Notes under the pieces: model-generated
Seen by the model: the letters and a program-made list of their open reading frames with translations, nothing else
The model's database searches: none
What the model was told of the DNA's origin: nothing
Program-made: the position numbers and the translations under genes
Part shown: in pieces, positions 1 through 28,122 of the stretch
Position numbering within the stretch: the first letter of the stretch is position 1
How the letters are laid out: every line of letters starts with the position of its first letter
Origin: Parcubacteria group bacterium
GTDB lineage: Bacteria; Patescibacteriota; Minisyncoccia; Moranbacterales; UBA2206
DNA: 64,000 nt
Assembly: GCA_041675165.1 (NCBI GenBank)
Contig: JBAYUI010000002.1
Location: forward strand, 376-64,375
Reading direction: 5' to 3'

Positions 1-209
1 CGCGCCTGATTGAGATGCAGATCTATCACGCCATTTTGGAATCCAACGCGTCCAAAGAATCATCCAGAATGCTGGCCATGCGCAACGCCACAGACGCGGC
101 CGGGGAAATGAAAAACAGTCTGACATTTGTGTTCAATCAGATCCGGCAAGGCAAGATTACACAAGAGATTGCGGAAATTTCAGCGGGGAGAGCGGCGCTG
201 GAAAGTTAG
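1..209 (+). CDS. atpG: F1 ATP synthase gamma subunit, C-terminal fragment (gene continues upstream of window)
   Basis: Translation ends ...AMRNATDAAGEMKNSLTFVFNQIRQGKITQEIAEISAGRAAL, matching the conserved gamma C-terminus (AMxNATDNA motif). Confidence 0.8.
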   Translation, partial: RLIEMQIYHAILESNASKESSRMLAMRNATDAAGEMKNSLTFVFNQIRQGKITQEIAEISAGRAALES

Positions 210-305
210 TCAGAACCGCTGATTCGCACATGAGACCACGTGATTGCACTGAATTTTAAATTCACGTGCAATCAGGATGATCATGTGAGAATCAGTGGTT
301 CTGAC
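207..305. repeat. Imperfect ~47-bp inverted repeat (palindromic element, copy 1) with CACGTG cores. Starts at the atpG stop codon
   Basis: Left arm gtcagaaccgctgattcgcacatgagaccacgtgattgcactgaatt. Right arm aattcacgtgcaatcaggatgatcatgtgagaatcagtggttctgac. A second copy is at 27935-28122. Confidence 0.7.
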
Positions 306-404
306 AGTTCTTTGGAAAATTTTGGAAAAAAAATCGTCACGATCTATGTAGATAGAAAGTGACGACTTGGGAGAGGCAAAAGAACGGTAATCCTGAATAG
401 TAGG

Positions 405-632
405 TTATAATATTTTTTCTCTTTGAGCTACTCTTTGAGCCACGACGATAGACAGGATTGTCCCAGTAAAAGCGTTAACTCCTCCTGCTAGCGATGAAAT
501 TGCTAGAACATGAGTGGATATAGAGGCAGGTTCTTTTGAAAGAACGCTTGCTACAACTCCTATCATTAAAATTACGAGCAAGTAGGATAAAATAGCGCCA
601 ATACTTAAAATAAAAGTGGGAACATTTTTCAT
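405..632 (-). CDS. Small hydrophobic membrane protein (hypothetical)
   Basis: 75-aa ORF with two predicted TM helices on the opposite strand, between atpG and atpD. No recognisable family. Confidence 0.35.
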   Translation of the reverse strand: MKNVPTFILSIGAILSYLLVILMIGVVASVLSKEPASISTHVLAISSLAGGVNAFTGTILSIVVAQRVAQREKIL

Positions 633-784
633 GACAAGCTCCTTATTTTGAAAGAAATGGTTTGTTGGATAAAATACCTTGATTTATTACAACCCCGTAT
701 TATACTCCAAAATCACCAAAAAGTCAAGAGTTGAATTGTCATAAGGGAAAAATGACTGAAATAAAGGGAAAAACAGTAAATTTT

Positions 785-915
785 TAATAATCAATATTCA
801 ATAACCAATACTCATTCAATATCCAATAAATTAATATTCAATGTATTTGATTAAATATTGAGATATTATTTATTGAATGGATATTGAACATTGAATATTG
901 AGTATTATTAGTAAG
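785..915. repeat. AT-rich imperfect palindrome built from caatattcaat/attgaatattg units, immediately upstream of atpD
   Basis: The arms taatcaatattcaataaccaatactcattcaatatccaataaat and atttattgaatggatattgaacattgaatattgagtattatt are approximate reverse complements. Confidence 0.6.
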
Positions 916-951
916 TTAATAAATAAGTTTAAATTTATATAATATAATATT

Positions 952-2340
952 ATGAACAAAGGAAAAATCACACAGATCATTGGGCCGGTGGTCGATGTGG
1001 AATTCGCGGATGGGCTGCCGAAGATTTATGACGCACTCGAGATAAAACTTCCCGCCTCATCGGCGGGTGCGACCAGCAAGCTGGTCTTAGAAACTCATCA
1101 GCACACTGGCGGGAACAAGGTGCGGGCGGTGGCGATGGGTTCGACGGATGGCCTGCGGCGCGGGATGGAAGTGACGGATACGGGCGCGGCAATTTCGGTG
1201 CCGGTGGGGGCGGGCGTTTTGGGACGGATGTTTAATCTTTTAGGCGAAACGATTGATGGAATTGACACACCGATTAAAATGGAAAGAAGAGATCCGATTC
1301 ACAGAGACGCGCCGAGATTCGAAGACCAATCGACGCAAGCGGAAATTTTGGAAACCGGCATCAAGGTTATCGACCTTATCTGTCCTTTTGTGAAAGGTGG
1401 AAAAGTGGGACTGTTCGGTGGTGCAGGCGTGGGCAAGACGGTGGTTATTCAAGAACTCATTCGAAACATTGCGGCCGTGCATGGCGGCTATTCTATTTTT
1501 GCTGGTGTGGGAGAACGAACCCGCGAAGGCAATGACTTGTATCATGAAATGAAAGAATCAGGCGTGCTGGATAAAACTGCACTTGTTTTCGGTCAGATGA
1601 ATGAACCGCCGGGAGCGAGACAACGCATCGCTTTGTCAGCACTCACGATGGCGGAATATTTCCGTGACACGGAAGGCAAGGACGTGCTGTTCTTTGTGGA
1701 TAACATTTTCCGTTTCACGCAGGCCGGCTCGGAAGTGTCTGCACTTCTCGGGCGTATTCCATCAGCCGTGGGTTATCAGCCGACTTTGGCGGAGGAAATG
1801 GGACGCTTGCAAGAGCGCATCACTTCGACTAAGAAAGGTTCAGTCACATCCGTGCAAGCGGTGTATGTGCCGGCGGACGATCTCACCGATCCAGCGCCTG
1901 CCACCACTTTCGGACATCTTGATTCAACAGTGGTGTTGTCTCGTGGTCTCTCTGAACTTGGAATTTATCCGGCCGTGGATCCATTGGACTCTTCTTCCAC
2001 AATTTTGGATCCGAAAATTGTGGGCGAAGAACATTACAACGTGGCGCGCGGCGTGCAGAAAGTTTTGCAGAGATACAAAGACTTACAAGATATCATTGCC
2101 ATTTTGGGCATGGAAGAATTGTCAGACGAAGATCGCGTGATTGTGGCGCGAGCGCGTAAAGTCCAGAAGTTCTTGTCACAACCATTTTTCGTGGCTGAAC
2201 AATTCACCGGCACCCCTGGCAAATATGTAAAACTGGCTGACACGATCAAGTCGTTCAAGATGATTTTGGAAGGCGCTTATGATGAAATTCCGGAGCAAGA
2301 GTTTTATATGAAAGGCAGTTTGGAGGAGATTTCTAAGTAA
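952..2340 (+). CDS. atpD: F1 ATP synthase beta subunit
   Basis: 462 aa. Walker [10 protein letters not shown]. Typical beta signature and length. Confidence 0.97.
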
Positions 2341-26946: not shown

Positions 26947-26975
26947 AAAAAGTATTTTTATTTTGTTGAAAAATA

Positions 26976-27003
26976 AAACCAGTCCGAAAAACGACTGGTT
27001 TTG
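26976..27003. terminator. Bidirectional hairpin terminator between the permease (+) and tRNA-Leu (-)
   Basis: accagtc-cgaaaaac-gactggt followed by tttg. Confidence 0.5.
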
Positions 27004-27010
27004 TCCATTG

Positions 27011-27093
27011 TGCCGAAAGAGAGAATCGAACTCTCATGGGATTGCTCCCGCGCGATTTTGAGTCGCGTGCGTCTACCGTTCCGCCATTTCGGC
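27011..27093 (-). tRNA. tRNA-Leu(CAA)
   Basis: Reverse complement folds as gccgaaa / tggcggaacggtagacgca / cgcga-ctCAAaa-tcgcg / long variable arm / agag-ttcgatt-ctct / tttcggc. 83 nt, type II tRNA. Confidence 0.85.
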
Positions 27094-27146
27094 AAATTTT
27101 GTATTTTACTTGTTCTATAGTACAATAAAGACAATACTTAGACATT

Positions 27147-27938
27147 ATGGCAAAAATAATTTCATTAGTCAACCAAAAGGGCGGGGTGGGCAAAACCACT
27201 TCGGCTATCAATCTGGCGACGTATCTGGCGTCCGCGGGGAAGTTCGTGCTGCTATGCGATCTTGATCCGCAGGGCAATGCTTCGTCCGGATTGGGATTGG
27301 ACGTGCGCAGCATCAAAAAGAGCCTCTATCATTCGATGATAATGGGGGAGCATCCTTCCAAAATAATCATCCGGACGGAAACTTTCGGACACGACCTCAT
27401 TCCCGCTTCGCAAGATCTGGCCGGAGCGGGCATCGAGTTGGTGCATATGGAGAATCGAGAATTCCGACTGTATAATGTTTTGCGAGAGATCCGCACCAAT
27501 TATGACTACATCATCATCGATTCTCCGCCGAGCCTTGGCCTCTTGACGATCAACGGCCTCGTGGCCAGTGATGAGATTATTATTCCGGTACAAACTGAAT
27601 ATTTCGCCTTGGAGGGCTTGAGCCAGCTTCTGAATACGATCGATCTGGTGCGCGAAAATTTGCAGCCGAATTTGAAGATTATGGGCGCGCTCCTCACGAT
27701 GTATGATAAGCGCAACCGTTTGGCTCGCCAAGTGGTGCGCGAGATCCAAGATCATTTTCCGGGGCATGTTTTCGATTCTGTCGTGCCGCGTTCGGTCAGA
27801 TTGGCGGAAGCTCCTGGATTTGGAAAATCAATTTTGAGTTTTGATTCTTTGTCCAAGGGGGCGCGAGCGTATAAGAATTTGGCGCGGGAAATCATCGAAA
27901 TGGACAAGAAAGATAGTCGGAAAGGATTTTCGGTCTGA
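27147..27938 (+). CDS. parA: Chromosome partitioning ATPase ParA/Soj
   Basis: KGGVGKTT deviant Walker A, 263 aa, followed by parB. Confidence 0.95.
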   Translation: MAKIISLVNQKGGVGKTTSAINLATYLASAGKFVLLCDLDPQGNASSGLGLDVRSIKKSLYHSMIMGEHPSKIIIRTETFGHDLIPASQDLAGAGIELVHMENREFRLYNVLREIRTNYDYIIIDSPPSLGLLTINGLVASDEIIIPVQTEYFALEGLSQLLNTIDLVRENLQPNLKIMGALLTMYDKRNRLARQVVREIQDHFPGHVFDSVVPRSVRLAEAPGFGKSILSFDSLSKGARAYKNLAREIIEMDKKDSRKGFSV

Positions 27939-28122
27939 ACCACTGATTGTCACATGAGGGCGCATGATTACACTGAATTGAAAAGACTTTTATTGGAAGA
28001 ATTGTTTGAATGCGGCGTTGAATAATCCTAATTTATATTTTATTTATTTAAAAAACATTAACCATTATTGATTTTAATTCACGTGTAATCAGGAAAATCA
28101 CGTGATAATCAGTGGTTCAGAA
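27935..28122. repeat. Second copy of the CACGTG-core palindromic element, split by a ~100-bp AT-rich spacer. Bridges the parA stop and the parB start
   Basis: Left arm tctgaaccactgattgtcacatgagggcgcatgattacactgaatt (27935-27978). Right arm aattcacgtgtaatcaggaaaatcacgtgataatcagtggttcagaa (28076-28122). Confidence 0.7.

Follow-up and report, generated by a model that had tools for sequence, protein, structure and literature searches.

The stretch of DNA analysed here, referred to as the window, is a 64-kb (64,000-nucleotide) segment of contig JBAYUI010000002.1 from a Parcubacteria group bacterium of the Moranbacterales, whose AtpD and ParA are 85-87% identical to proteins of Moraniibacteriota metagenome-assembled genomes (MAGs). 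It carries two imperfect palindromes, one at the end of atpG and the other between parA and parB, which a first-pass annotation had taken for copies of one element beginning exactly at stop codons. Both statements hold, and the coordinates given there were borne out and refined to 209-305 and 27933-28122. The parts of the two elements are listed below with the E-values of an nhmmer arm profile trained solely on 197 arms from other genomes.

209-305, 97 nt: copy 1, whole element, two arms and a TTA centre
209..255, plus strand: copy 1 left arm, A-type (E 3e-11)
256..258, no strand: copy 1 centre TTA, the minimal loop of the palindrome
259..305, minus strand: copy 1 right arm, B-type (E 1e-14)
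27933-28122, 190 nt: copy 2, whole element, 47-nt arms as in copy 1
27933..27979, plus strand: copy 2 left arm, A-type (E 3e-12)
27980..28075, no strand: copy 2 centre, an AT-rich spacer of 96 nt
28076..28122, minus strand: copy 2 right arm, B-type (E 7e-15)

The atpG stop codon TAG occupies 207-209, and copy 1 starts on the G of that codon. At the other junction the parA stop is the TGA at 27936-27938, which lies within the terminus of copy 2 (gTC-TGA-acc), GTC encoding the final residue of ParA. The parB ATG at 28127 is 4 nt past the right end of copy 2 and is the true start, because the ParB N-terminus (MAQNYGLGRGL) matches an orthologue at another locus (L097) from residue 1. The left arm of copy 1 reads GTCAGAACC GCTGATT cg CACATGA gac CACGTGATT g CAC-TGAATT. 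Its right arm, given as the reverse complement, reads GTCAGAACCACTGATT ct CACATGAT cat CC-TGATT g CACGTGAATT, and that of copy 2 reads tTCTGAACCACTGATT at CACGTGATT tt CC-TGATT a CACGTGAATT. The left/right asymmetry described earlier (CAC-TGAATT against AATTCACGTG) is real and extends through the family as a distinction between A-type and B-type arms, with both window copies having the A arm on the left and the B arm on the right.

That the two palindromes are copies of one element is borne out by the foreign-arm profile, which recovers only these four arms from the 64-kb window (E 3e-11 to 7e-15). Similarly, the 12-mer GAACCRCTGATT occurs four times in 64 kb at up to one mismatch, always inside the four arms, against 0.62 matches expected from shuffled windows, and none of 100 shuffles reaches four. 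Folded as single strands, the copies form long imperfect hairpins of -37.2 kcal/mol (copy 1, z -11.2) and -31.5 kcal/mol (copy 2, z -5.9), each with one bulged G and an internal loop. A terminator scan of both copies and the adjoining DNA returned no terminator-like site and no U-tract, promoter-like matches within the copies were at about chance expectation, and Rfam at gathering thresholds reported only 4 tRNAs in the whole window and no family matching the elements.

Both elements are probably derivatives, lacking an open reading frame (ORF), of a small cassette that encodes a GxxExxY nuclease; they belong to a dispersed family of ~95-bp imperfect palindromes resembling miniature inverted-repeat transposable elements (MITEs) or REPINs, the hairpin-forming doublets of repetitive extragenic palindromic (REP) sequences. 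The exact outer-arm pattern GAACCRCTGATTNNCACRTGA, scanned in one genome per species, was found in at least 112 stretches from 40 assemblies, nearly all of them Candidatus Moranbacteria/Moraniibacteriota, Parcubacteria or Paceibacterota MAGs. The densest single assembly holds at least 10 loci on 8 contigs, and arm loci are also widely spaced along contigs of 200-300 kb. No match to the arm pattern was found in 2.9 million viral contigs, and the family is therefore not phage-borne. Family arms were also seen in MAGs labelled Bdellovibrionales or Gammaproteobacteria (CAZAFB01, loci L018, L033-L035, L046 and L047; CAYHWE01, loci L006, L038 and L041), which are probably mislabelled Patescibacteria; the ParA and ParB encoded at L018 are 76% and 60% identical to those of the window.

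A relaxed arm pattern yielded 201 arms, arranged as 66 inverted pairs and 69 apparently solo arms. Pair sizes have a mode of 87-92 bp, with further classes near 155, 170 and 480-504 bp. The termini follow RTCWGAACC...GGTTCWGAY, the outer end is conserved to position -4, and behind the terminus the arm continues as CACTGATT-NN-CAC(R)TGA-N3-C(A)C(-)TGATT-W-CAC(A)TGAAT. Each arm thereby contains about four CAC(N)TGATT-type boxes at a spacing of 9-11 bp, about eight per element, and the NN spacers between boxes are hypervariable. A-type arms run ...CACATGA-nnn-CACATGATT-t-CAC-TGAAT and B-type arms ...CAC(-)TGATT-tt-CC-TGATT-r-CACRTGAAT; typed by this crude regular-expression rule, heterotypic A/B pairing dominates among the elements. 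Short copies carry no ORF, and the palindrome centre may be empty or hold an AT-rich spacer, a terminator, nested repeats, a decayed ORF remnant or an intact ORF. Canonical terminators lie in the centre of L103 and straight after the solo arms L019, L030 and L038, and unrelated palindromic repeats are nested in the centres of L016, L020 and L101.

The folding behaviour of the family bears on what is conserved in it. Chimeras assembled from left and right halves of different elements fold at -49.0 kcal/mol and real elements at -41.4 kcal/mol (p 7e-8), the real ones being the less stable. The NN spacers are identical between both arms in 3 of 34 elements, where 6.9 would be expected. Simple selection for an RNA or single-stranded DNA stem was rejected on these two grounds, real elements folding worse than chimeras and their NN spacers not being complementary. 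Box sequence and a defined asymmetry are therefore conserved, not base pairing, which points to recognition by a protein, either of boxes in duplex DNA or of a folded strand whose bulges are fixed, and not to a structural RNA.

A partner gene is found in the largest size class. Six arm pairs of 480-504 bp each enclose one conserved ORF of 128 aa and nothing else, and no other ORF was present between the arms in any of the pairs inspected. The 128-aa ORF matches PF13366 PDDEXK_3 (E 2e-38) and TIGR04256 'GxxExxY protein' (E 7e-40) and no other family. The protein is predicted to adopt a Cas4-like PD-(D/E)XK fold, and residues E35, D74, E84, K86 and Q98 are invariant even in relatives of 30-36% identity. 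A PDB sequence search with GxxExxY gave no relative, and PADLOC and PHROGs returned nothing meaningful. The function of PF13366 was listed as 'unknown' in a survey of the PD-(D/E)XK superfamily from 2012 (PMC3424549). In the literature searched, GxxExxY was mentioned in passing three times and no dedicated paper was found; nor was the element described in work on PF13366 or TIGR04256, on palindromic repeats of Patescibacteria or on MITEs in the candidate phyla radiation (CPR).

The association of this gene with the arms was recovered independently of the arm pattern. A protein-based and thus arm-blind metagenome scan, using a query alignment of 6 sequences, gave 439 relatives, of which the four closest (75-90% identity; L113-L116) each have a family arm to the left and to the right. 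With the six genome loci added, family arms flank 10 of 10 close ORF copies (L010, L014, L018, L022, L058, L107 and L113-L116). Seven of the ten have the arrangement arm-ORF-arm with the termini outward; L115 reads arm>ORF arm><arm, L114 reads arm><arm'-ORF-<arm, and L116 has arms on both sides of the ORF. In most copies the arm located 3' of the ORF is the B-type one. At L106 the final 25 codons of the ORF (DSHVIKMISLICFGAKSLEVK*YIK; E ~1e-5) survive in a 153-bp element (7396-7548), and ORF-less copies can therefore arise by internal deletion. No significant GxxExxY remnant was detected in the centre of copy 2 in the window (E>3). The family arms are the inverted repeats of a GxxExxY nuclease cassette that exists in ORF-less, remnant and ORF-bearing forms. 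One MAG (UBA4824) contains two paralogous ORFs that are ~80% identical, and one ORF (P0088, listed on 71 contigs) has a single context, directly 3' of parB, in 20 of 20 contigs read. In one lineage the cassette stands straight after the parB stop, at the following positions.

L018, 4167-4650: GxxExxY cassette after parB
L194, 2501-2890: GxxExxY cassette after parB

The same organization extends to more distant members of the protein family, for which at least 8,000 homologues were found at E<=1e-10. Among 70 metagenome GxxExxY loci of 57-71% identity, a GTC[AT]GAA-type terminus is present on both sides in 32 and on one side in 21 (53/70 in all), compared with ~0.1 loci expected by chance on both sides, as estimated from pattern degeneracy. 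The distant inverted repeats share the GTCTGAAC terminus and have different sub-repeats (TGATT, GGATT, GAATT or TTGAT, according to subfamily), which are alike in both arms of an element. The more alike two proteins are, the more alike their arms tend to be (Mantel r 0.32; the value was reached by 0 of 500 permutations). ORF and arms co-diverge across the wider family and keep a common 8-bp terminus. The right terminus was found in 43 loci, and in 24 of them an ATG follows after 1-3 nt, typically as GTTCAGAC-A-ATG. Within Moranbacteria loci, the distant GxxExxY genes at L069, L085 and L078 are flanked by inverted repeats of yet other sub-repeats, and some metagenome loci place the ORF between two complete palindromes. 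Six distant matches came from a plasmid collection; the one from Persicobacter has AATCC sub-repeats and no clear GTCTGAAC termini.

Many distant cassettes appear to sit in type I restriction-modification operons, judging from flank sequences that resemble the HsdS C-terminus and the HsdM N-terminus. Some of them lie within hsdM-like 5' ends and are bracketed by direct duplications of that 5' end, the intact gene restarting 1-2 nt past the right terminus. Campbell-type integration of a circle with host homology and two-ended illegitimate joining are candidate explanations for these duplications.

L187, 2866-2971 and 3433-3537: hsdM 5' duplication, 103 bp, perfect
L171, 2919-2975, 3449-3505 and 3579-3634: hsdM 5' duplication, 56 bp, three copies
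L118, 2900-2957 and 3442-3500: hsdM 5' duplication, >=41 bp, diverged

Close fitting between element and gene is also a property of the ORF-less copies. Gene calls near the arms were made by ORF heuristics, and flanking genes other than atp and par were named by eye from sequence. On this basis, 75 of 190 arms face the stop codon of a converging gene. The abutment of stop codons first noted in the window belongs to the family as a whole, since in 47 of these 75 the stop touches or overlaps the terminus (TAG followed by TCW in 16, TAA followed by TCW in 9, TAA-R in 14 and gTC-TGA-acc in 8). A start codon is faced by 56 arms, and in 23 of them the ATG stands exactly 4 nt past the end. Most copies lie at gene 3' ends or between cistrons, not in promoter regions; elements also sit between convergent and divergent gene pairs, and their orientation is independent of flanking gene direction (6 vs 6).

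Upstream of ~50 genes of the window, Shine-Dalgarno motifs are almost absent, which suggests that initiation in this host is Shine-Dalgarno-independent or leaderless. An ATG placed 4 nt from an element displaces no ribosome-binding site, because the host hardly uses Shine-Dalgarno sequences. AT-rich DNA precedes the window genes, and TATAAT-like hexamers are frequent in it at 5-12 nt from the ATG. Within the first 4 codons of the arm consensus itself, TGA occurs in two or more frames (GTC-TGA; CTG-AAC-CAC-TGA), and the long box of the arm adds a stop in the third frame (..ACA-TGA). An upstream gene that enters an arm therefore ends within 8 codons, and such rapid termination may help to explain why insertions at gene 3' ends are tolerated.

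Certain junctions are occupied repeatedly. The atpG stop carries an element in 7 species including that of the window, always flush with the stop and in both A/B orientations, and other recurrent junctions are those of uvrA (7 species), HlyD-like genes (5), GspE/PilB-like genes (5), atpH (4) and gyrB (3), with ~13 of 144 flanks belonging to the atp operon. Repeated occupation of the atp operon, together with the survival of elements in streamlined genomes, speaks for some constraint at the level of the host. The parA-parB junction accounts for 2 of 201 arm sites. At L097, whose ParB is 67% identical, ParA ends in the element's GTC-TGA with the parA stop inside the element, as it does in the window, and this shared ending argues for one ancestral insertion between parA and parB; the L097 element orthologous to copy 2 has a centre of only ~33 nt. 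At the same junction L018 carries a different sub-repeat palindrome (TACGAA repeats). A family element lies flush between an ftsA-like gene and its neighbour at L111, where the window has an unrelated 180-nt spacer, and a solo arm follows an alaS-like gene at L111 and L072, where the window genes overlap. Presence or absence thus varies across species at orthologous junctions, and some copies persist at one junction.

In the mechanism proposed for the family, ORF-less copies would have arisen from ORF-bearing cassettes via internal deletion, and the GxxExxY nuclease would recognise them in trans and spread or maintain the arms. We infer such recognition or mobilisation of the arms by the nuclease; it could operate through the 8-bp terminus GTCWGAAC together with the ~10-bp-phased CAC(N)TGATT boxes, probably on folded or asymmetric DNA. 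Recognition by the nuclease, or a benefit to the host, would then keep the boxes conserved. The cassette would be promoter-less and live on operon read-through, and it is proposed that surviving copies lie exactly at cistron junctions because a promoter-less cassette would depend on that read-through. Arms within a genome resemble each other slightly but significantly more than arms of different genomes do, the nearest neighbour coming from the same genome for 33 of 194 arms compared with 9.6 expected. The window copies are most likely passive passengers, and as a side effect they would place long hairpins at two junctions, one separating atpG from the transcription unit that follows and one separating parA from parB.

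Several results weigh against this derivation from a mobile cassette. A search for target-site duplications in 64 pairs, at offsets of 0-6 and lengths of 2-8, gave no consistent excess over shuffled pairs, and long flanking direct repeats occur in 0 of 61 family pairs, so the family shows no direct footprint of transposition. Identical ORF copies at different loci were not found among the P0088 contexts or the UBA4824 paralogues; no sign of recent jumps was seen, P0088 having one context and the paralogues being only ~80% identical. The nuclease, instead of being the enzyme that mobilises the elements, could be their cargo. The 64-kb window contains no GxxExxY gene. Apparent conservation of one part of the arm is inflated, as the genome loci were chosen with an exact 19-base pattern for that part. 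Furthermore, the recurrent atpG, uvrA and parA junctions and the strong conservation of the boxes suit a host-selected cis element equally well or better than a purely selfish one.

This last point leads to the main rival, in which the palindromes are cis-acting hairpins selected by the host at cistron boundaries, whatever their origin, for mRNA 3'-end protection, RNase processing, attenuation of read-through or stop-start coupling. Such a role is compatible with a selfish origin, and it would account for ends flush with genes (47/75 at stops, 23/56 with the ATG at 4 nt), for the use of the same junctions by different species with ~13/144 flanks in the atp operon, for the enclosure of the parA stop by the element in two species with ParB proteins of 67% identity, and for the persistence of elements in streamlined genomes. 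The near absence of Shine-Dalgarno sequences from the host and the strong folds of both window copies are in keeping with it too. We nevertheless judge it unlikely: there is no selection for complementarity within elements, real pairs folding worse than chimeras; orientation is random with respect to transcription; convergent and divergent gene pairs, too, have elements between them; in other species a given junction holds another palindrome family or none at all; and terminator-like U-tracts and an Rfam family are missing, with promoter matches at chance level. Boxes conserved for sequence and not for pairing, in a ~10-bp phase with about four per arm, would fit operator arrays for a host transcription factor or nucleoid protein acting over a regulon of housekeeping operons, as would the recurrence at orthologous junctions. 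This explanation is improbable given the position of most copies at gene 3' ends or between cistrons and not at promoters, the enclosure of a nuclease ORF by the same arms with ORF-remnant intermediates, and the fact that related families share only the 8-bp terminus while their boxes vary with the enclosed ORF.

Structure-specific recombination sites like attC, which would mark gene-cassette boundaries and be acted on by a recombinase, share several features with the elements: imperfect palindromes of 70-190 bp with a variable centre, conserved bulged bases that give the A/B asymmetry, termini of the pattern xxxxAAC...GTTxxxx, an ORF start a few nt after the right end with stop codons in the left end, and, at some metagenome loci, a GxxExxY ORF between two complete palindromes. 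The idea is nonetheless highly improbable, as TCTGAAC/GTTCAGA agrees with the attC consensus RYYYAAC/GTTRRRY at 5/7 positions each when compared by eye, the flanks consist of core housekeeping genes whose order is conserved (atp operon, parAB, uvrA, gyrB) and not of arrays, and no integrase association was noticed, though no search aimed at integrases was made. The first-pass annotation had raised the possibility of a divergent centromere-like parS or ParB-binding site, and operators for autoregulation by ParA or ParB belong to the same group of explanations. Copy 2 and the L097 element do lie between parA and parB, the inner boxes hold TTCAC(G)TGAA-like cores, the window ParB is canonical (domains ParB_N, HTH_ParB and ParB_C), and a search at up to 2 mismatches turned up no canonical parS in the window or across 930 kb of related loci, bar one likely chance match. 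However, the best match to the 16-bp consensus TGTTTCACGTGAAACA is ~10-11/16 when aligned by eye, the palindrome that separates parA from parB in L018 is a different one, and arms that flank a nuclease gene and a two-arm architecture of ~8 boxes are unlike parS. Many copies scattered through the genome had been named as the outcome that would speak for a repeat instead, and many scattered copies were found, on contigs of at least 40 assemblies and at junctions unrelated to partition, with only 2 of 201 arm sites at parA-parB. The dispersal therefore argues for a repeat family and against a centromere; the parS idea is largely refuted by this distribution and retains almost no likelihood. In the vicinity of parAB, no canonical parS TGTTNCACGTGAAACA (<=2 mismatches) was found in the window, L097 or L018, and with the limit relaxed to <=3 mismatches two unrelated window sites account for three matches (35598 on both strands; 35728). 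The parS of this clade may be divergent or located elsewhere.

The window contains other palindromes built from phased sub-repeats, CAATATT being a further sub-repeat type among them. Two of these palindromes fill their intergenic gap exactly, from stop codon to start codon, and their sub-repeats resemble the arms around other GxxExxY subfamilies (L085, L160, L176). Several palindrome families thus seem to coexist in the genome of the window, as REPIN families do.

13578-13672: palindrome of ACGCGAAT/CATTCGC repeats, resembling the arms of L085
43266-43380 and 36197-36308: palindromes of AAATCCAAA repeats, resembling GGATT-type arms
785-907 and 60390-60419: further palindromes of phased sub-repeats

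In other loci, repeated palindromes occur in or beside the family arms (L020 3560-3700; L101 6015-6190; L016 4800-4890) and after the solo arms L073, L085, L095 and L105. Examples of the nested type are GTCATTGCGAGCGAAGCGAAGCAATC..., TGTCATCCCCGCGAAGGCGGGGATCC... and CCCCCTCTCCCGTAATCGGGAGAGCCTGCC, which may represent further CPR repeat families. The gap between atpG and atpD in the window (305-952) is ~650 bp long and also holds a further palindrome in addition to the two features given below; at L028, L037, L049 and L074 this gap measures 460-760 bp, with a similar hairpin after the element. Elsewhere in the window, an ORF with a reverse-transcriptase domain (RVT_1, Pfam match) is located at 31186-32229, ~2 kb downstream of parB.

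~335-365: hairpin in the atpG-atpD gap
405-632, minus strand: 75-aa membrane-protein-like ORF in the atpG-atpD gap

The derivation of the window elements from a GxxExxY cassette can be extended to a broader proposal, which we put forward tentatively and with more doubt than conviction. GxxExxY proteins would be the nucleases of an undescribed class of tiny promoter-less cassettes, characterised by the GTCTGAAC 8-bp terminus, by phased sub-repeats specific to each subfamily, by sites at cistron junctions (stop, element, 1-4 nt, ATG) and by REPIN-like ORF-less offspring that persist in streamlined CPR genomes; as such they could be the PD-(D/E)XK counterpart of the REPIN-RAYT system (RAYT, REP-associated tyrosine transposase) in several phyla. 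If this is true, a large uncharacterised PD-(D/E)XK family would gain a testable function, namely the binding and cutting of defined inverted repeats. The tiny genomes of CPR/Patescibacteria are thought to be poor in repetitive DNA, and the idea of persistent intragenomic replicators would reach both these bacteria and another enzyme class. In addition, annotators of CPR genomes would be warned that CACGTG-containing palindromes beside parAB are not parS. The flush geometry of stop, element and ATG also provides a natural setting in which to study the tolerance of coupled cistrons for long hairpins between them, in organisms that make no use of Shine-Dalgarno sequences.

Comparison with known systems places the family closest to two kinds of short repeat. 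In REPIN-RAYT systems, REP doublets are associated with REP-associated tyrosine transposases (Bertels and Rainey, 2011, PMC3116915; PMC3337134). Like these, the present elements consist of two inverted units forming an imperfect hairpin of ~100 bp; they are extragenic and dispersed, probably in tens of copies per genome, and often lie just past stop codons; their partner gene is flanked by inverted repeats; no target-site duplication accompanies them; and they persist for long periods, partly at orthologous sites, with several families per genome. In contrast, the gene here encodes the 128-aa PF13366 GxxExxY protein, for which a Cas4-like PD-(D/E)XK fold is predicted, instead of a Y1 HUH transposase, and this gene can be multi-copy (two diverged genes in UBA4824); the arms are ~47 nt long, with about four phased CAC(N)TGATT boxes and the 8-bp terminus GTCWGAAC, and the hosts are CPR bacteria.

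Classical MITEs, such as the Correia elements of Neisseria, are short and ORF-less, have terminal inverted repeats and are derived by internal deletion. The first-pass annotation had offered a MITE-like family as its alternative, and this comes close to the evidence: the copies are short (size mode 87-92 bp), carry no ORF and end in terminal inverted repeats, they are scattered through intergenic DNA and transcribed together with their neighbours, and internal deletion of an ORF-bearing relative is seen at L106. The classical label has to be amended, however, as the family has no target-site duplication at any offset or length, its ORF-bearing relatives encode a PD-(D/E)XK protein and not a DDE transposase, and its two arms are consistently non-identical (A/B). 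Integron attC sites have the core sites R'' (RYYYAAC) and R' (GTTRRRY). The elements resemble them as imperfect palindromes with conserved bulges, a variable centre and AAC...GTT in the outer cores, with stop codons in the left core and ORF starts just past the right core; they differ in that the core consensus is unmet (5/7, by eye) and that conserved housekeeping operons flank them with no cassette array. The likeness to parS (TGTTNCACGTGAAACA) lies in a CACGTG-centred core between T-rich and A-rich bases and in one copy adjoining parB, whereas the match is ~10-11/16 by eye, the boxes number ~8, and the family is dispersed and encloses a nuclease gene in other copies. Unlike intrinsic terminators, neither window copy has a G+C-rich stem followed by a T-tract. 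With the arms of the GxxExxY cassettes, both window copies share the GTCWGAAC terminus and the phased boxes in inverted pairs, and it is with these arms that they are grouped.

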